The notes under the pieces were generated by a model. The model saw only the letters and a list, made by a program, of their open reading frames with translations. It had not been told where the DNA came from and searched no databases. Shown here in pieces: positions 11,469-63,924 of a DNA stretch of 64,000 nucleotides. Location: positions 7,184 through 71,183 of the forward strand of contig CAZOVM010000005.1 in assembly GCA_964583395.1 (NCBI GenBank), in the 5' to 3' direction. Origin of the DNA: an uncultured Pedobacter sp. Its GTDB lineage: Bacteria > Bacteroidota > Bacteroidia > Sphingobacteriales > Sphingobacteriaceae. A program made the position numbers and the translations under genes. Position 1 is the stretch's first letter; each line of letters starts with the position of its first letter.

Positions 11469-12515
11469 TTATGCCGGTTCTTGCTGACTTAAGCAATGCC
11501 AACTTCCCAGCCCCCAGATTACATCTACAGAATTAATTCCGATTACTTTACGATCCGGAAAACACTTTTGCAAGATTTCCAAAGCTTTATTGTCGTTAAC
11601 ATCTCCAAACACTGGAACAATGACCGCTGCATTGGCAATATAAAAATTAGCATACGATGCCGGTAGTCTGGTATCATCATAAATTACCGGTGATGGCATA
11701 GGTAACTCCACAATATTTAACGGTCTACCGTCTAACAAGCGCATCTTTTTTAAACTTTCTAAATTTTCTTGTAACAGGGCATAATTCTCATCATCAATAT
11801 TACTTTCTACAACAGTTACTACTGTGTCTTCGTTTACAAAACGTGTAATATCATCTATATGACCATCGGTATCATCGCCAACTATCCCGTCTCCTAACCA
11901 TAGAATTTGAGAAGCTCCGTAATACTCTTTTAAATACGTTTCAATTTCCTGCTTTGAAAGATGTGGATTTCTATTCTCATTTAACAAGCATGCCGTAGTG
12001 GTGAGAATGGTTCCATTACCATTGAACTCTACAGAGCCTCCTTCCATTACGATTCCCGGATGAAATACCGGAATATTAAAATGCGTACCAATTTTGGTTG
12101 GAATTACATCATCTAAATCGTACGGTGGATATTTATCTCCCCATGCGTTATAGCCCCAATCCACAATTACCTTTCGTATATCTGCACTTTCATTAATTAG
12201 AAAAGCTGGACCATGATCGCGACACCAAGCGTCATTAGATTCGTTAAAATAGAACTCTATGTTGGTTAAAATTGCATCCGTTTTTTCAATATGAGACAAA
12301 GCCAGTGATTTCATTGCCTCATCTTTTACATTTATGCGTACTTTTTCACCTTGCGAAACAGCCGCTATAAATAAGCTATAAGGCTCATATACAGTGTGTA
12401 ACTTGCCAGGCCACGATGCTTCCTTATGCGGCCAACTTAACCAAGTTGCTTCATGCTTTGCCCATTCGGCAGGAAAAGAGTAACCTAATTTATTTGGAGT
12501 AGATATGTTGTTCAT
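11469..12515 (-). CDS. aguA: Agmatine deiminase
   Basis: PAEW, WCRDHGP, EGG, DTDGHID, SYANFY, GSWHCLSQQ. Confidence 0.92.
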   Translation of the reverse strand: MNNISTPNKLGYSFPAEWAKHEATWLSWPHKEASWPGKLHTVYEPYSLFIAAVSQGEKVRINVKDEAMKSLALSHIEKTDAILTNIEFYFNESNDAWCRDHGPAFLINESADIRKVIVDWGYNAWGDKYPPYDLDDVIPTKIGTHFNIPVFHPGIVMEGGSVEFNGNGTILTTTACLLNENRNPHLSKQEIETYLKEYYGASQILWLGDGIVGDDTDGHIDDITRFVNEDTVVTVVESNIDDENYALLQENLESLKKMRLLDGRPLNIVELPMPSPVIYDDTRLPASYANFYIANAAVIVPVFGDVNDNKALEILQKCFPDRKVIGINSVDVIWGLGSWHCLSQQEPA

Positions 12516-12569
12516 TATTTTTTGTTATTAAGCGCTGAGCGAAAAGACTAAAAGCTTTAAGCATTCCGC

Positions 12570-13445
12570 TTAGTCCTCGTCTATAAACCTCTTAGTAATG
12601 GGTTGATAGGAGTCAATTCTTCTATCGCGTAAAAACGGCCAATGCTTACGTATATAATCGCTTTGATTTAAATCTAACTCTACAACTTTTGTTTCTTCCT
12701 GATCGTGTGAAGCTAAATAAAGTAATTTGCCTTGAGCATTGGTAGCAAAGCTTCCACCCCAAAACTTCATAGCTCCGTTTTGTTCAAACCCCACTCTATT
12801 CACACTTACTACCGGAACCCCGTTAGCAACAGAGTGCGAGCGTTGAATTGTCTGCCAAGCATTATATTGATCTTGATTGGTTTCTTCATCTTGGGTAGTA
12901 TCCCATCCTATTGCGGTTGGATAAAACATAATATCTGCACCCATTAGCGCAGTAATACGAGATGCCTCCGGATACCATTGATCCCAACAAATTAAGATAC
13001 CTATTTTAGCAAATTTGGTTTGAAAAACCTTATAACCTAAATCGCCGGGCGTAAAATAAAACTTCTCATAGTAAGCCGGATCATCAGGAATATGCATTTT
13101 TCTATATTTCCCTAAATAAGAACCATCGGCATCTAAAACTGCTGTTGTATTGTGATACAATCCTTGCGCTCTTTTTTCGAAAAGTGAAGCAATAATAACC
13201 ACACCTAATTCTTTTGCAACAGCCGATAAAGCATCTGTTGAAGGACCAGGAATAGACTCGGCCAAATCAAAATTTGAATAATCTTCTACATCACAAAAAT
13301 ATAAAGATGTAAAAAGCTCCTGCAGGCATACAATTTGTGCTCCATCTGCGGCAGCATCTCTAACTTTTACAATGGCTTTATCTAAATTTTCCTGCTTATT
13401 AGCAGAACAAGTCATTTGTACTAATCCAACTTTAACTTTGCTCAT
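12570..13445 (-). CDS. aguB: N-carbamoylputrescine amidase (carbon-nitrogen hydrolase)
   Basis: CLQELF, YRKMHIP, ICWDQWYPE catalytic E-K-C triad; adjacent to aguA. Confidence 0.85.
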   Translation of the reverse strand: MSKVKVGLVQMTCSANKQENLDKAIVKVRDAAADGAQIVCLQELFTSLYFCDVEDYSNFDLAESIPGPSTDALSAVAKELGVVIIASLFEKRAQGLYHNTTAVLDADGSYLGKYRKMHIPDDPAYYEKFYFTPGDLGYKVFQTKFAKIGILICWDQWYPEASRITALMGADIMFYPTAIGWDTTQDEETNQDQYNAWQTIQRSHSVANGVPVVSVNRVGFEQNGAMKFWGGSFATNAQGKLLYLASHDQEETKVVELDLNQSDYIRKHWPFLRDRRIDSYQPITKRFIDED

Positions 13446-23498: not shown

Positions 23499-23957
23499 AT
23501 GATTCAAAGAATACAAACTATATGGTTATTTCTGGCCGGATTAACGGTTTTAAGCTTATTATTTTTTCCAATGGTTTCTTCAATAGATGGAAATACTTCT
23601 TATAAAGTAACAGCCAGTGGGCTATTTAGCAATGTAGATGGAGTAAGTCAAAAATTAGAAACTTTTTTGCCGTTAATAGCAGGTACAGTTATAGTAGCCA
23701 TATTTTGTTTTGCTAATATATTTAATTTCAGAAAGCGCTTTTTACAAAAGAGAGGCATATTTATTGCAATCGTGCTGATGTTAGGCTTATCATTTGCTTG
23801 TAGCAGATATGCCAACCAAATTCCAGGCGGATTAGATAACGCCGAATTTGGCCCTGGCGTTTTTATGCCTATGCTGGCGATGATGTTTGCCGGGCTGGCT
23901 ATTCGTGGGATTAATAAAGACGAAAAATTGATTCAATCTGCAGAAAGGTTGAGATAG
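23499..23957 (+). CDS. DUF4293 family membrane protein
   Basis: MIQRIQTIWL N-terminus, four TMs, C-terminal RGINKDEKLIQSAERLR; -7 element TATCTTTG at 23471-23478. Confidence 0.85.
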   Translation: MIQRIQTIWLFLAGLTVLSLLFFPMVSSIDGNTSYKVTASGLFSNVDGVSQKLETFLPLIAGTVIVAIFCFANIFNFRKRFLQKRGIFIAIVLMLGLSFACSRYANQIPGGLDNAEFGPGVFMPMLAMMFAGLAIRGINKDEKLIQSAERLR

Positions 23958-24066
23958 AGCAGAAAGCGAAGAGGGGAAAGGGGAAAGCTTAAAGGAGAAA
24001 GCTGAAAGCGAAGAGCGGAAAGCTAAAAGCTAAAAGCGGGAAAAGGGAAAAGGGAAACGAAAAATT
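23958..24066 (+). repeat. Heptanucleotide-periodic purine-rich tandem array
   Basis: 12 in-phase AG(C/G)nnAA-type units (agcagaa agcgaag aggggaa aggggaa agcttaa aggagaa agctgaa agcgaag agcggaa agctaaa agctaaa agcggga), then aaaggga x2. Confidence 0.9.
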
Positions 24067-24071
24067 ATCGT

Positions 24072-24149
24072 ACACAACATTATACCATAAGATTCTTTCG
24101 CCACAGGATAAACTTCCGCTACACTAGACCTCGAGGATAACAATAATTC
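24072..24149 (+). repeat. REP-like right-arm module, copy 1 (direct repeat of ~24577-24649; partial copy 24509-24549)
   Basis: accataagatt(c)tttc..ccacaggataaacttcc(g/a)ctacactagac shared between copies. Confidence 0.85.
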
Positions 24150-24175
24150 CTAAACGATAACTACTAAGTAAACAC

Positions 24176-24240
24176 CTTGTTATCCGGCCTATCAAGATTT
24201 CTGTTAAAAAGCAAAGTGCAGCGGTTTCAAATTAGTAATG
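24176..24240 (+). repeat. Dispersed module X, copy 2
   Basis: cctatcaagatttctg...gtttcaaattagtaatg, homologous to the reverse complement of 10334-10398. Confidence 0.8.
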
Positions 24241-24329
24241 CAGTCGAGAGTCTGAAGTCGGGAAGACCAATAGTCATTGCACAGATGAAAATCGCCTGTG
24301 TTATTTTACCCATCCAGTGCTGATTTGAA

Positions 24330-24442
24330 ATTGAGTATTATCATAACCGATAAACCGTCATTGCGCGGAGGAACGACAAAGCAATCTAAAAGCAGCAATT
24401 AATAAATGTACTCTTAAGATTGCTTCGTGCCTCGCAATGACG
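24330..24442 (+). repeat. CGTC-type REP-like palindromic doublet plus flank, copy 2
   Basis: ccgtcattgcg..gcaatct..agattgcttcg..cgcaatgacg; 100/113 identical to copy 1. Confidence 0.9.
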
Positions 24443-24576
24443 AGAACTCTTAAGCGCCATTCCGTGGCGCTGAGCAGAGGCAAGCCTTGCGCAGCAAAAG
24501 CGTTGAACGAAGATCCTTCGGTAGCTACGCTAGACCTAAAGGATGACAGGGTAAAGGCAAAAGGTGGAATATTAAC

Positions 24577-24649
24577 GCATACAATGTTACACCATAAGAT
24601 TTTCCCCCACAGGATAAACTTCCACTACACTAGACTTCCAGAATGACTG
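24577..24649 (+). repeat. REP-like right-arm module, copy 2
   Basis: accataagattttcccccacaggataaacttccactacactagacttccagaatgac. Confidence 0.85.
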
Positions 24650-24831
24650 TCTTTAAAACGTGCTAACGATCAATTTTTAAGCGAATCATTATTAAAACAC
24701 GCATCAAAAATTAACAGTCCGCTCGCTAAAACGCTATCTTTTGCCTAAAAAAATCATAAACCACTCATTTATAACAATCTATAACAGAAATTATTTTACC
24801 TGACTATCAACGAAATACAAAATATAATCCG

Positions 24832-24839
24832 TACCTTTG
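24832..24839 (+). promoter_or_regulatory. -7 promoter element for the DEAD-box helicase gene
   Basis: TACCTTTG, 22 bp before the ATG. Confidence 0.65.
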
Positions 24840-24861
24840 CGCCTCAATTTAAAATTATTAC

Positions 24862-26763
24862 ATGAACCCATTTAAGTTATTGGGGATAAGTGATGACGTT
24901 GTTAATGCCGTAAAGGAACTAGGGTTTGAATCACCCACTCCTATCCAGGAACAGTCTATTCCTGTCTTATTAGAAGGCTTTAACGATTTCGTTGGTTTGG
25001 CCCAAACAGGAACAGGGAAAACAGCCGCATTTGGCTTACCACTGTTAGAATTATTAGATTTCAGAAGCAATAAGCCACAGGCATTGATTTTATGCCCAAC
25101 GCGCGAGCTTTGTATGCAAATCGCAAGCGACATCCGAAATTTCTCTAAAAACATTCCCGGCGCAAGCGTCGTAGCAGTGTACGGAGGAGCAAACATCATG
25201 CAGCAATTGCGTGAAATCAGATCTGGTGTTCAGATCGTAGTTGCTACTCCCGGAAGAATGCTGGACATTATTGGTCGCAAAGCGATCGATTTCTCAAATG
25301 TTAAATATGTTGTTCTAGATGAAGCCGACGAAATGCTCAATATGGGCTTTCAAGAAGACATCAATGACATTTTGTCGACCACACCAGACGACAAAAAAAC
25401 CTGGTTGTTCTCTGCAACAATGCCTCCGGAGGTACGTCGCATAGCTAAAAATTACATGGATTCTCCTATTGAATTAACAATGGGAACCAAGAATACAGGT
25501 AATGTAAACATTGAACACGAATACTACACTGTTAAAGCGCGCGATAAATATGCTGCTTTAAAACGTATCGTAGATTTTAATCCAGAAATTTTTGCAGTTG
25601 TTTTCTGTAAAACTAAAATGGACACTCAAGATGTTGCCGATCACTTGATCAGAGATGGTTACAACGCAGATGCTTTGCATGGCGATTTATCACAACAACA
25701 ACGTGATAAGGTTATGAAAAGATTTAGAGAGCGCAGTATGCAATTATTAATTGCTACAGATGTTGCTGCTAGAGGTATCGACGTAAATAATGTTACGCAC
25801 GTAATTAACTACTCTTTGCCAGACGAAATAGAAAGTTATACCCATAGAAGTGGTCGTACAGGTCGTGCGGGTAAAACCGGAATTTCAATCTGTATTGTAA
25901 ACACAAAAGAAATCGGTAAAATTCGTCAGATAGAAAAAATCATTGGTAAAAAATTCACCAAAGCTGAACTACCTACTGGTTTCGATGTTTGCGAAAAACA
26001 ATTGTTCTCTTTAATTCACAAAGTACACAATGTTGAAGTAAATGATAATCAAATCGAACAATATATCCCTAGAATTATGGATGAGTTCAAAGATCTTTCA
26101 AAAGAAGATGTGATTAAGAGATTTGCTTCTCTGGAGTTCAATAGATTCTTAGAATATTATAAAAACGCACCTGATTTAAATGCATCTGCTGATGAGCGTG
26201 GCGAACGTGGTGACAGCTTAAACAGACCAGGTTTTAGAGCAGACTACACCAGAATGTTTATCAATTTAGGCTCTGTTGATGACTTTACAAGAGGAGATTT
26301 ATTATCTTTTGTATGCAACAATGGCAAAATTAGCGGAAAAAACATTGGTAAAATAGACCTTAAAGGTGTTTATTCATTCTTCGACGTTGAAAATGAAGTT
26401 GTAGAAACTTTATTTAACAATTTTAAAGAAATTGAATTTAATGGCCGTAATGTTCGCATCGAAAAAAGCGGAGAAGGCGAAAGCAATAGACGCGAAGGTG
26501 GTCGCAGAGATGGTGGTCGTCGTGATGGTGGCCGCAGAGAAGGCGGTTACGGAAGCGGAAGGAGTGGTGGCGAACGCAGAAGCGGTGGCGGCGGTTATGG
26601 AAGAAGAGAAGGTGGAAACTTTAGCAATAGCAGAAGAGAAGGTGGAGAACGCAGAAGAGAAGGTGGAAATTCGGGCGGTGGTTTTAAAGACTTTTCTGGC
26701 AGATCTAGAGGAGAACGTTCTACCCCAAGAAGAGAAGGTGGAGAAAGAAGAAGAAGAGATTAA
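24862..26763 (+). CDS. deaD: DEAD-box RNA helicase with DbpA RNA-binding domain and RGG tail
   Basis: Q motif, AQTGTGKT, PTREL, TPGR, DEAD, SAT, ARGID, HRSGRTGRAG, FINLG..D (DbpA), R/G-rich C-terminus. Confidence 0.95.
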   Translation: MNPFKLLGISDDVVNAVKELGFESPTPIQEQSIPVLLEGFNDFVGLAQTGTGKTAAFGLPLLELLDFRSNKPQALILCPTRELCMQIASDIRNFSKNIPGASVVAVYGGANIMQQLREIRSGVQIVVATPGRMLDIIGRKAIDFSNVKYVVLDEADEMLNMGFQEDINDILSTTPDDKKTWLFSATMPPEVRRIAKNYMDSPIELTMGTKNTGNVNIEHEYYTVKARDKYAALKRIVDFNPEIFAVVFCKTKMDTQDVADHLIRDGYNADALHGDLSQQQRDKVMKRFRERSMQLLIATDVAARGIDVNNVTHVINYSLPDEIESYTHRSGRTGRAGKTGISICIVNTKEIGKIRQIEKIIGKKFTKAELPTGFDVCEKQLFSLIHKVHNVEVNDNQIEQYIPRIMDEFKDLSKEDVIKRFASLEFNRFLEYYKNAPDLNASADERGERGDSLNRPGFRADYTRMFINLGSVDDFTRGDLLSFVCNNGKISGKNIGKIDLKGVYSFFDVENEVVETLFNNFKEIEFNGRNVRIEKSGEGESNRREGGRRDGGRRDGGRREGGYGSGRSGGERRSGGGGYGRREGGNFSNSRREGGERRREGGNSGGGFKDFSGRSRGERSTPRREGGERRRRD

Positions 26764-62395: not shown

Positions 62396-62440
62396 AAACA
62401 GCGAAAAGCCAAAATTAGTCTTTAAGGCTTTTCGCTGTTT
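62396..62440. terminator. Long hairpin between convergent genes
   Basis: AAACAGCGAAAAGCC / GGCTTTTCGCTGTTT perfect 15-bp inverted repeat. Confidence 0.75.
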
Positions 62441-62443
62441 CTC

Positions 62444-62568
62444 TTCAATTTTCGTTCTTAGTCTTCTTTCGAACTTTCGACTTTCTTCTTCCGCTCTTTG
62501 CTTTTTAGCTCATCGCTTTCCCCTTTTCAGCTTTCAGCTTTCGGCTTTTAGCTTTTAGCTTTTAGCTT
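62444..62568 (-). repeat. Heptanucleotide-periodic tandem array after the GH109 stop codon
   Basis: Minus strand: agctaaa x3, agccgaa, agctgaa x2, then aggggaa agcgatg agctaaa ... agcggaa ... agtcgaa. Confidence 0.9.
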
Positions 62569-63924
62569 CTAATACTGATCATCTAAAGCAAAAATTGGCT
62601 TTCTGGTCATCCATTTACCTTTTGTAAAATCTGGAATAGCCTGAACCTGCCCTCCTTGCGCAATACTTTGCTCAGAAAGTGGCGTAATAGCATACCATGT
62701 AGCTAAATCATAAACATCCATTGGAAATGGCGCTTTACGCTTCAAAGATTCAATGAAAGCATGAATTACAAACCAATCCATCCCACCGTGTCCGGCTCCA
62801 GCAGTATCTGATGCATATTTTTTCCATAGCGGATGATCGTATTGCTTCATATACTCTGTATCTTTTTCATACTTATGACCGGGACTTTTTCCTTCAATAT
62901 GAATGGAGTCAAAATCATCCATCCACAACCCATTGGTTCCTTGAACTCTAAAGTTTAGAGAATAAGGTCTAGGAGAGTTAACATCGTGCTGAAGCACAAT
63001 GGTTTCTCCATTAACAGTAGTAATAGAAGTAGTAACAATATCTCCTAATTTAAAATTAACCTTTGCATTCGGATGATTTGGTCCTCCTTTCGGATGGTTT
63101 ACAATATATCTATTTAATCCCCTAGCTTTTGTAGCAACAGAAGTTAAAGCCAGTAACCTATTTCCTCGGTTTATATTAATCATATTTGCAACAGGACCTA
63201 AGCCATGCGTCGGGTATAAATCGCCATTTCTATAAACAGAGTGATTGGTACGCCATTTTGCCTCCGAAAATCCTTTCTCTCCAAATTCCACTCCACTGTC
63301 ATAAGGTGTTATTCCATCGTTAAATTTAACGCCTCTTAAATCATGCTGATAGCCCCCTTGCAAATGCAAAATCTCACCGAATAAATTATCACGAACCATA
63401 TTTAATACAGCCATCACATCTCGTCTGTAGCAAACATTCTCCATGGCAAAAATCTGGATACCGGTTTCTTCACTTGCATTTACTAAATCCCAACATTCCT
63501 GAATATCAGTAGCACCACAAACCTCCATCCCTATGTGTATTCCAGCACGCATAGCATCTACACCCTGAATTGCATGCCATTCCCAAGGAGTTGCAATAAT
63601 AACTGCATCTATATCCTTTCGTTTTAATAGGTTTTTATAATCGTAATCTCCATTGCTGTAAATTACCGGCTCTCGCTTTCCAGCTTTTGCACACATTTTT
63701 AAAGATACAGGCACGGCCGATTTAGTATCTGGATCTGCAATTGCTACCACTTCAACATCTGCTCTTCGCAAAAGCAAATCCAAATGATTTTGCCCCCTTA
63801 ATCCACTTCCAATAATACCTACTCTGATTTTTGAAACTACCTGAGAATATCCAAGTATTGGATCCATAACGGCAGCCGCAGCACTTGCTGTTGCCGCAGA
63901 TTTAATAAAGGTTCTTCTTTCCAT
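62569..63924 (-). CDS. Gfo/Idh/MocA oxidoreductase, GH109 alpha-N-acetylgalactosaminidase-like, Tat-exported
   Basis: MERRTFIK twin-Arg signal, GIIGSGLRG, IATPWEWH, MENVCY, YPTHGLGP, GHGGMD, PDFTKG. Confidence 0.9.
   Translation of the reverse strand: MERRTFIKSAATASAAAAVMDPILGYSQVVSKIRVGIIGSGLRGQNHLDLLLRRADVEVVAIADPDTKSAVPVSLKMCAKAGKREPVIYSNGDYDYKNLLKRKDIDAVIIATPWEWHAIQGVDAMRAGIHIGMEVCGATDIQECWDLVNASEETGIQIFAMENVCYRRDVMAVLNMVRDNLFGEILHLQGGYQHDLRGVKFNDGITPYDSGVEFGEKGFSEAKWRTNHSVYRNGDLYPTHGLGPVANMININRGNRLLALTSVATKARGLNRYIVNHPKGGPNHPNAKVNFKLGDIVTTSITTVNGETIVLQHDVNSPRPYSLNFRVQGTNGLWMDDFDSIHIEGKSPGHKYEKDTEYMKQYDHPLWKKYASDTAGAGHGGMDWFVIHAFIESLKRKAPFPMDVYDLATWYAITPLSEQSIAQGGQVQAIPDFTKGKWMTRKPIFALDDQY

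Follow-up and report, generated by a model that had tools for sequence, protein, structure and literature searches.

Array 1, a run of degenerate 7-nucleotide (nt) units that starts at the base directly after the TAG stop codon of a DUF4293 gene, is probably a copy of a repeat family that is dispersed in the genome, specific to the lineage and built of degenerate heptanucleotides in tandem, of the kind of the STRR, GGGAATC and TAACTGA repeats. It lies in a 64,000-nt stretch of DNA from an uncultured Pedobacter sp., which we call the window (positions 7184-71183 of contig CAZOVM010000005.1, hereafter C5; assembly GCA_964583395.1). Each array of the family alters locally: one to several units at a time undergo replication slippage or unequal exchange, with subsequent point mutation, and array-led blocks were copied between loci along with the adjacent REP-like repeat modules. 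The assembly comprises 2.87 Mb on 31 contigs with 34.8% GC and is 96% complete, and the relatives to which we compare it are distant (protein identity 59% or less).

Array 1 is 109 bases long and its purine-rich strand is the sense strand of the DUF4293 gene upstream. The first six units of 23958-24041 are AGCAGAA AGCGAAG AGGGGAA AGGGGAA AGCTTAA AGGAGAA, the last six AGCTGAA AGCGAAG AGCGGAA AGCTAAA AGCTAAA AGCGGGA; then follow AAAGGGA twice and AACGAAAAATT, up to 24066. The first-pass annotation had described 12 in-phase heptamers and two AAAGGGA units directly behind the TAG, exactly as the sequence reads, while its unit form AG(C/G)nnAA is exact in 9 of the 12 units and misses by one base in the other three. 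TRF reports a period of 7 with 11.7 copies and 69% matches, and its scores for periods 14 and 21 exceed the one for period 7. A four-unit IUPAC pattern (at most one mismatch) matches 13 times in the window compared to 0.01 matches expected from shuffles, and all 13 matches belong to array 1 or to array 2, a second array on the minus strand behind a gene of 451 amino acids.

Array 2 shares units with array 1 and directly follows a TAG as well, as had been noticed before. It occupies the gap between this stop codon and a terminator-type hairpin, whose 5' arm (AACAGCG AAAAGCC) carries on the unit pattern of the array. The 451-amino-acid gene is presumably a GH109 member, which is the label the first-pass annotation gave it. 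At the 14 loci of GH109 homologs in relatives neither an array nor a gene cassette of the type discussed below was found, and the terminator-like hairpin, where recognisable, begins within about 20 nt of the stop. Likewise, the DUF4293 protein ends (...AERLR*) at the same stop position in 20 congeneric genomes, and neither array nor cassette follows that stop in any of them. As the orthologous loci of the relatives are array-free, we regard arrays 1 and 2 as recent, lineage-specific additions. The one other contig that encodes the exact DUF4293 protein is identical in sequence and ends inside the repeats downstream of array 1; a metagenome scan for the locus returned no match.

A near-identical end of the two arrays had also been pointed out. 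It is not a trait of the family: 'AACGAAAA(A)TT' is found in only 5 of 63 array tails and the 3' flanks are heterogeneous, so that a conserved 3' terminus AACGAAAATT, present in the same number of tails, was rejected. Neither array folds as RNA better than its shuffles (z = -1.4 for array 1, z = -0.3 for array 2), which speaks against a structured RNA. A known RNA family was rejected, as the Rfam search gave nothing at the gathering threshold nor at E <= 1.

The genome-wide period-7 scan proposed earlier yields 38 self-similar windows at period 7 compared to 9-12 at periods 4-12. In each of these counts, nine windows come from 100-N scaffold gaps, where every period gives a match. A unit-chain search retrieved 73 arrays of at least 7 units with a combined length of about 4.9 kb, 63 of them intergenic and 10 inside open reading frame (ORF) calls. 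The suggestion of a dispersed family is thereby supported, and chance or low complexity as an origin was rejected by the period scan and the pattern matches in the window. The arrays have 7-19 or more units each with the consensus A-G-[C/G]-N-N-[A/G]-A and the profile A (95%), G/A, C/G, N, N, A/G, A (92%). The conserved positions are 1 and 7, with A in 92-95% of the units (1.5-1.7 bits), and positions 4-5 are free (0.07-0.18 bits). There are 187 distinct units around a common AAAG[C/G] core, and the base composition is 48% A, 30% G, 11% C and 11% T.

Array 1 has up to 55 blastn matches within the genome. A five-unit pattern occurs 58 times compared to once for the reversed control; in 60 relatives it is found 0-30 times, in most of them not at all. 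The highest of these counts (up to 30) are due to perfect single-unit repeats, which match the reversed control too, and the genomes G003 and G006 have 12 and 17 matches without comparable control matches. The dominant vocabularies of relatives differ: G012 has 54 AAGT-type matches, this genome two. Four of nine scaffold gaps abut heptamer arrays ((AGCTAAA)n, (AGACTGA)n and AGTC-type), two more abut hairpin repeats, and contig ends C4/C5, C10, C16 and C23 also finish in arrays. The copy number of arrays is therefore underestimated and some arrays are longer than assembled; a practical consequence is that heptamer arrays limit short-read assembly. The 100-N gaps include C5:95063-95162, C7:72298-72397, C1:274883-274982 and C8:46246-46345.

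The arrays are positioned far from randomly with respect to genes, as shown by their tabulation by stop-codon type and strand. Gene calls were made in this analysis as the longest ORFs of at least 80 amino acids. For 23 arrays no more than 8 nt separate the purine-strand 5' end from the stop codon of a co-oriented gene, compared to 3.1±1.3 (maximum 8 in 2000 trials) for random position and orientation in the same spacers, which supports the preference for gene 3' ends proposed in the first-pass annotation. At several loci the ORF end falls within the first units of the array. The pyrimidine orientation abuts a stop in about 3-4 arrays. Both arrays of the window follow a TAG, a pattern that had been pointed out before, but in the family the stop codons are TAA (11), TAG (7) and TGA (6), and TAG-specific targeting was rejected.

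If the purine 5' end faces a gene start, the distance is mostly 11-113 nt. Overall, 43 of 56 arrays are closer to a gene at their purine 5' end than at their 3' end (p = 7e-5); the median distances to the nearest gene are 34 nt and 196 nt, respectively. No replication-strand bias was found by local GC skew (26/62). The placement rule is geometric: the purine 5' end is directed towards the gene closest to it, regardless of the strand on which this gene lies. This fits the arms of hairpin elements or a process at the DNA level better than a purely sense-strand function of the RNA. The same polarity is seen in 15 of 21 arrays of G012 (AAGT vocabulary, loci L182-L200), and 36 intergenic AAG-type arrays from unrelated phyla show the tendency in 26 cases, with 12 of 24 at a stop. 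Purine-rich arrays of many vocabularies (L042-L121) occur in cyanobacteria, Acidobacteriota, Saprospiraceae, gammaproteobacteria and others. Rehm et al. (2015, PMC4692102) published this rule for the heptamers of Xanthomonas (GGGAATC) and Nostoc (GGGGA(C/T)T): these are located either on the sense strand, at most 50 bp from the stop, or on the antisense strand, upstream of an ORF, the means being 28 and 160 nt.

With the purine 5' end against the gene boundary, arrays behind stops would be transcribed as an unstructured, A/G-rich spacer in the 3' untranslated region, ahead of the transcript terminator. One might go further and regard the array as a selected cis-element, an explanation which we consider unlikely. 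It could act as a directional insulator or terminator pad, where a polymerase heading towards the gene transcribes the pyrimidine strand with its excess of C over G (Rho- or R-loop-prone) and the transcript of the gene carries the inert purine strand. It could also be a multivalent platform for a single-strand-binding protein such as a pentamer of the four-helix-bundle (4HB) type or a Csp-type protein. The strong orientation rule at both gene ends and in other phyla is an argument for such a role, and so are the conserved core positions 1 and 7 next to the free positions 4-5 and the weakly structured pyrimidine strand (T 48%, C 30%, G 11%). In addition, transcript starts and stops are commoner at heptamer repeats than at controls (Rehm et al., PMC4692102), and binding of one heptamer per protein is on record for CspB, as cited in PMC4679880. 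Against it stands that the array is missing from every orthologous locus examined, so that the genes do without it, and that paralogous copies differ in the number and order of their units. Cyanobacteria are not known to possess Rho, and as they share the polarity a Rho-based rule cannot be general. Finally, hairpins of <= -15 kcal/mol are no commoner after arrays (15%) than after random spacers (16%). The idea that arrays are spacers always ahead of a terminator was rejected on this frequency as well, though array 2 ends in one. We see no need to assume a sequence-specific function.

How the arrays change can be deduced from their units. Identical units are neighbours in 91 of 598 cases, compared to 52±4 after shuffling within arrays and 11±3 after genome-wide shuffling, which indicates that each array has its own unit set and that duplicates arise locally. 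Period-7 identity over the fifths of the arrays is 0.61, 0.70, 0.73, 0.67 and 0.59. This peak of homogeneity in the middle, with both edges decayed, is an argument for slippage or unequal exchange and against polar addition. The TRF scores for periods 14 and 21, which exceed the one for period 7, also favour slippage or unequal exchange. The copies at the end of C4 and the start of C5 have both flanks in common and differ in their internal units (16 and 14 units). In a pair on C6 the 3' part of the array and about 170 nt beyond it are common to both copies, but these lie behind two unrelated genes and have different stop-proximal units, and on C15 an array plus modules forms a 595-nt tandem duplication. 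These data show that units undergo slippage or unequal exchange and that array-led blocks are copied ectopically.

The first-pass annotation had argued that units which differ yet keep their register would not be produced by simple slippage, and had postulated an unknown unit-adding process. The former does not exclude slippage, as the excess of identical neighbours shows; for the latter, unit clustering, central homogenisation and the comparison of paralogs fit ordinary slippage or unequal exchange. Several other drivers were tried and rejected. Loss of mismatch repair is not the cause, as mutS and mutL are intact. Neither a reverse transcriptase (RVT_1, PF00078) nor a Y1_Tnp (PF01797)/RAYT transposase was matched in the 96% complete genome. 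Polar, telomerase-like growth was discarded since there is neither a 5'-to-3' gradient of homogeneity nor a reverse transcriptase, and repeats written by such an enzyme (telomere-like, or linked to diversity-generating retroelements and Avd) do not agree with the absence of PF00078 and the decay of both edges. A RAYT-driven REP/BIME system is contradicted by the non-palindromic array 1 and the lack of PF01797; the neighbouring module C (Table 1), itself a hairpin, belongs to another family. A CRISPR array was rejected because the units are contiguous without spacers and have no Rfam match; cas genes were not searched for.

The genome contains two 4HB genes (PF05635), both on contig C8, while congeners have 0-13 (mostly 4-13). 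The gene 4HB-1 (C8:36461-36820, minus strand) has an AAGC-type heptamer tract on either side, of which the left one begins at the upstream TAG and the right one stops 7 nt before the next ATG. The two arms are complementary, with a duplex energy of -36.0 compared to -15.4±3.6 kcal/mol for shuffles, none of 500 being as good. Of 20 cassettes of relatives inspected by eye, most have inverted heptamer arms of other vocabularies, starting at the upstream stop. The statement of the first-pass annotation that 7-mer tracts flank such genes in Bacteroidota is therefore correct for this group. The argC-argD junction carries a cassette in G006, G008 and G012 too, and the cassette proteins of G006 and G008 are 47-50% identical to 4HB-1. 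Since the arm vocabularies at this junction differ (AAGT in G006, AAGG in G012), both arms have changed together. A general match between the vocabulary of a genome and its argC-argD arms was rejected: it holds in G000, G006 and G008 and fails in G012, where the arms are AAGG-type and the dispersed arrays AAGT-type.

Judged by sequence, the family appears to have its vocabulary and polarity in common with the complementary arms of 4HB-1. This raises the possibility, suggested in the first-pass annotation, that array 1 is an empty or relic site, i.e. one half of a heptamer-armed PF05635 cassette which lost its gene and second arm and whose remaining arm later expanded. The resident 4HB-1 with its complementary AAGC arms and a left arm beginning at the upstream TAG would be a model for this, and the cassettes of relatives show the same geometry of a purine arm at a stop. 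Losses may have occurred, because two PF05635 genes remain here where most congeners have 4-13, and empty hairpins with two arms of this vocabulary are present at a few sites (e.g. C16 37799, -31 kcal/mol). However, for none of the 63 arrays could a complementary arm in inverted orientation be found over a distance of 1.5 kb, and the best complementarity is equal on both sides (median score 18 downstream and 18 upstream). A duplex scan of the spacer downstream of array 1 revealed no partner arm beyond shuffled controls, and tblastn of both PF05635 proteins against this spacer found no remnant (best E = 20). The suggested check of orthologous loci for a 4HB ORF inside the array was negative at all 20 DUF4293 and 14 GH109-homolog loci, though one must keep in mind that these relatives are distant (55% protein identity or less). 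Conversely, relatives have a cassette at 10 junctions which in this genome are all short, clean and free of arrays, and arrays as relics at those sites were accordingly rejected. The number of arrays, about 60, is also far above the cassette number of any relative. We therefore think it quite improbable that a cassette was lost at this locus. Within the dispersed family, array 1 would rather be a one-armed, cargo-less member than the scar of a cassette lost there.

Cargo-less hairpins do occur elsewhere in the genome. Back-to-back purine/pyrimidine AGCT runs at C16:37799-37909, C10:97049-97136, C20:14065-14149 and C8:44949-44997 form such hairpins of up to -31 kcal/mol, so that the family exists here in loaded, empty and one-armed states. 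In the window (12500-12580, minus strand) the 54-nt junction between a CN-hydrolase (aguB-like) gene and an agmatine-deiminase-like gene contains an array-like imperfect palindrome (AGCGGAA TGCTTAA AGC / GCTTTTAGTCTTTTCGCT). G006 and G008 have a 4HB cassette at exactly the same site. The palindrome may be an excision scar; its fold is not significant (z = -0.75).

It is conceivable, if rather remote, that the arrays and the 4HB protein constitute one system with the 4HB-1 cassette as its autonomous member and the roughly 60 one-armed arrays as non-autonomous targets or products. An Avd-like pentamer of 4HB-1 may then recognise the AAAG[C/G] cores, spaced by 7 nt, on single-stranded nucleic acid. 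If true, this would account for a vocabulary specific to the genome, for a core that is conserved although positions 4-5 are free and for a polarity that is fixed at gene boundaries; the '23S IVS protein' family would then also be connected with the heptamer repeats found in several phyla.

The spacer between the DUF4293 gene and the helicase gene measures 904 nt here, compared to 100-170 nt in relatives with the helicase adjacent. From 23958 to about 24650 it is entirely repeated elsewhere in the genome (blastn) as a mosaic of about 690 nt in the order array-A-B-C-D-array'-A' (Table 1), located between the DUF4293 stop and the helicase promoter region. The single-copy remainder (24650-24861) is equivalent to the whole spacer of the relatives. 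Module C, with 24-33 genomic copies that often adjoin arrays, represents a REP-like family not described so far, and the genome has no RAYT gene to go with it; its layout is CGTCATTGCG..GGAACGA.AAGCAATC - loop - GATTGCTTCG..CGCAATGACG. Module E is a direct repeat of 24061-24141 (79-85% identity). The full module order is found again on C11, where B-D appear more than 90% identical and the counterpart of the mini-array is a second, longer array. Partial orders are found on C15, C3, C2, C10 and C23 and at the contig ends of C4 and C5.

The half-site of module D also occurs in a 114-nt tandem repeat of hairpin units. This repeat lies at C1:271000-272470 with the unit GTCATCCTTGAGCG...GAAGGATC / GATCCTTCGG...CTCAAGGATGAC, and half-sites of it are found in modules A, D and E. 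It flanks a small gene (271759-272079), which we take, from its translation alone, to be of the GIY-YIG type. The helicase gene downstream of the mosaic (window 24862-26763) encodes a long R/G-rich C-terminal tail with RREGG/RRDGG repeats, and in the tail-coding DNA TRF detects a 15-nt period at 26497-26540.

Table 1. Features of the two array loci and of the 4HB-1 cassette. Coordinates refer to the window unless a contig is given.
Feature	Position	Strand	Description
DUF4293 gene, 152 amino acids	23499..23957	+	ORF; PF14126 match; stop TAG 23955-23957
Heptamer array 1	23958..24066	+	12 units AG(C/G)NN(A/G)A, 2 x AAAGGGA, decayed tail
Repeat module A	24062..24170	+	blastn, 13 matches; follows ~11 other arrays
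Repeat module B	24168..24350	+	6-9 genomic copies; 92% identical to C11 55575-55756
Repeat module C	24345..24465	+	Hairpin CGTCATTGCG...GCAATC / GATTGC...CGCAATGACG; -33.1 kcal/mol, z = -3.3
Repeat module D	24460..24560	+	~16 blastn matches; half-site GCTACGCTAGACCT..AGGATGAC
Mini-array, 3 units	24549..24570	+	AGGGTAA AGGCAAA AGGTGGA; family D1
Module E, second copy of A	24568..24647	+	Families D2, D3
Single-copy spacer remainder	24650..24861	+	Promoter-like site 24800-28 before DEAD-box helicase gene
Terminator-type hairpin	62396..62440	-	15-bp stem then UUUAAUUUU; -23.9 kcal/mol, z = -6.3
Heptamer array 2	62444..62568	-	AGCTAAA x3, AGCCGAA, AGCTGAA x2, then decaying units
451-amino-acid gene	62569..63924	-	TAG (complement of 62569-62571) abuts array 2
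4HB-1 cassette	C8:36360-37010	-	Between argC-like and argD-like genes

The mosaic could also be explained by regarding the array as the leading end of a mobile composite (array-A-B-C-D, MITE- or BIME-like), which inserts as a whole behind stops via an unidentified enzyme and for which the array is the target-proximal or recognition end. The recurrence of the module order behind arrays at C11, C15, C3, C2, C10 and C23 agrees with this, as does the C6 pair with its common array 3' part and flank behind two unrelated genes. In addition, about 690 nt of repeats begin exactly at a stop where relatives have none, and the modules bear half-sites of the hairpin repeat around the presumed GIY-YIG nuclease gene. 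On the other hand the composite has no terminal inverted repeats and no recognisable target-site duplication, the junctions between array and modules are not constant, and many arrays stand alone, e.g. array 2 with its terminator only. Moreover, a Y1 or RAYT transposase is absent from the genome, and the C15 copies resemble a plain 595-nt tandem duplication. In our opinion insertion of a whole composite is an unlikely origin of the locus.

The explanation by a dispersed repeat family that alters through slippage and the copying of blocks has to face several objections. Slippage at 60 separate loci would by itself give no shared genome-specific core (AAAG[C/G] here, AAGT in G012), so that some dispersal or a common constraint is required in addition. 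The flush start at stops and the orientation bias of 23 compared to about 3-4 arrays are unexplained by slippage and neutral tolerance. A polymorphism of unit number between strains and a transcription of the arrays would follow from the comparison of paralogs only, and due to our own ORF calls the distances to start codons are approximate. Placement and dispersal of the arrays stay unexplained by the favoured explanation. One idea is that a unit composed of an A-run plus G/C arose from terminator arms, which fits array 2 but not the G-rich families elsewhere.

The arrays correspond to the known class of dispersed heptamer repeats in that head-to-tail 7-nt units occur at many intergenic loci with the published polarity. 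With the G-rich heptamers of Xanthomonas and Nostoc (Rehm et al. 2015, PMC4692102), which occupy about 90-190 loci in a genome and vary in unit number, they share the dispersed intergenic location and the lack of a leading/lagging bias; here the unit number differs between paralogous copies. Unlike these, the units here are degenerate (187 distinct units around a core instead of one consensus heptamer) and A-rich, their G-runs being too rare for regular quadruplexes; four is not a preferred number of units, and the arrays are embedded in mosaics with other repeat families. The STRR and the repeats of Mrazek et al. 2007, as far as secondary descriptions tell (PMC4679880, PMC4692102), also favour period 7, an intergenic location and a lineage-specific abundance, and polymerase slippage is given as the proposed driver there too (PMC4679880); phylum and vocabulary are different here.

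The TAACTGA repeats of Beggiatoaceae, cyanobacteria and five Bacteroidetes (MacGregor 2015, PMC4679880) are intergenic heptamer arrays as well. In Bacteroidetes they form long arrays alongside other heptamers, and the spacers of relatives are shorter and repeat-free (PMC4679880). In contrast to our family they are mostly located a few nt upstream of start codons, in forward orientation, with a near-perfect single unit (PMC4679880). Among the S23p/PF05635 cassettes and ORF-bearing intervening sequences (IVS) of 23S rRNA, the Coxiella IVS contains GACAGAT two to three times, variable between strains, before the S23p ORF (PMC4990558). Period 7 and the purine-type cassette arm that starts at an upstream stop are features in common with array 1, which differs in having no complementary arm, ORF or hairpin and in a site that is cassette-free in all relatives examined.

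Enterobacterial BIME/REP and pneumococcal BOX elements are modular mosaics of short repeats at gene 3' ends with variable module number. As in these, several short repeat families are clustered in a 3'-end spacer here, but the leading module is a non-palindromic tandem heptamer array and a RAYT/Y1 transposase is missing.

Dispersed heptamer repeats have been known since the cyanobacterial STRR, and neither their dispersal nor their function is understood. What is new here is a family from Bacteroidota with an unusually degenerate vocabulary that reproduces the published polarity rule. As loaded, empty and one-armed states stand side by side in it, the genome represents a compact test bed. It poses the questions whether the polarity is a geometric rule at the DNA level or a rule at the level of transcription, whether 4HB proteins are partners of heptamer arrays, and whether the arrays might serve as handles for ectopic recombination that spread other intergenic repeats.

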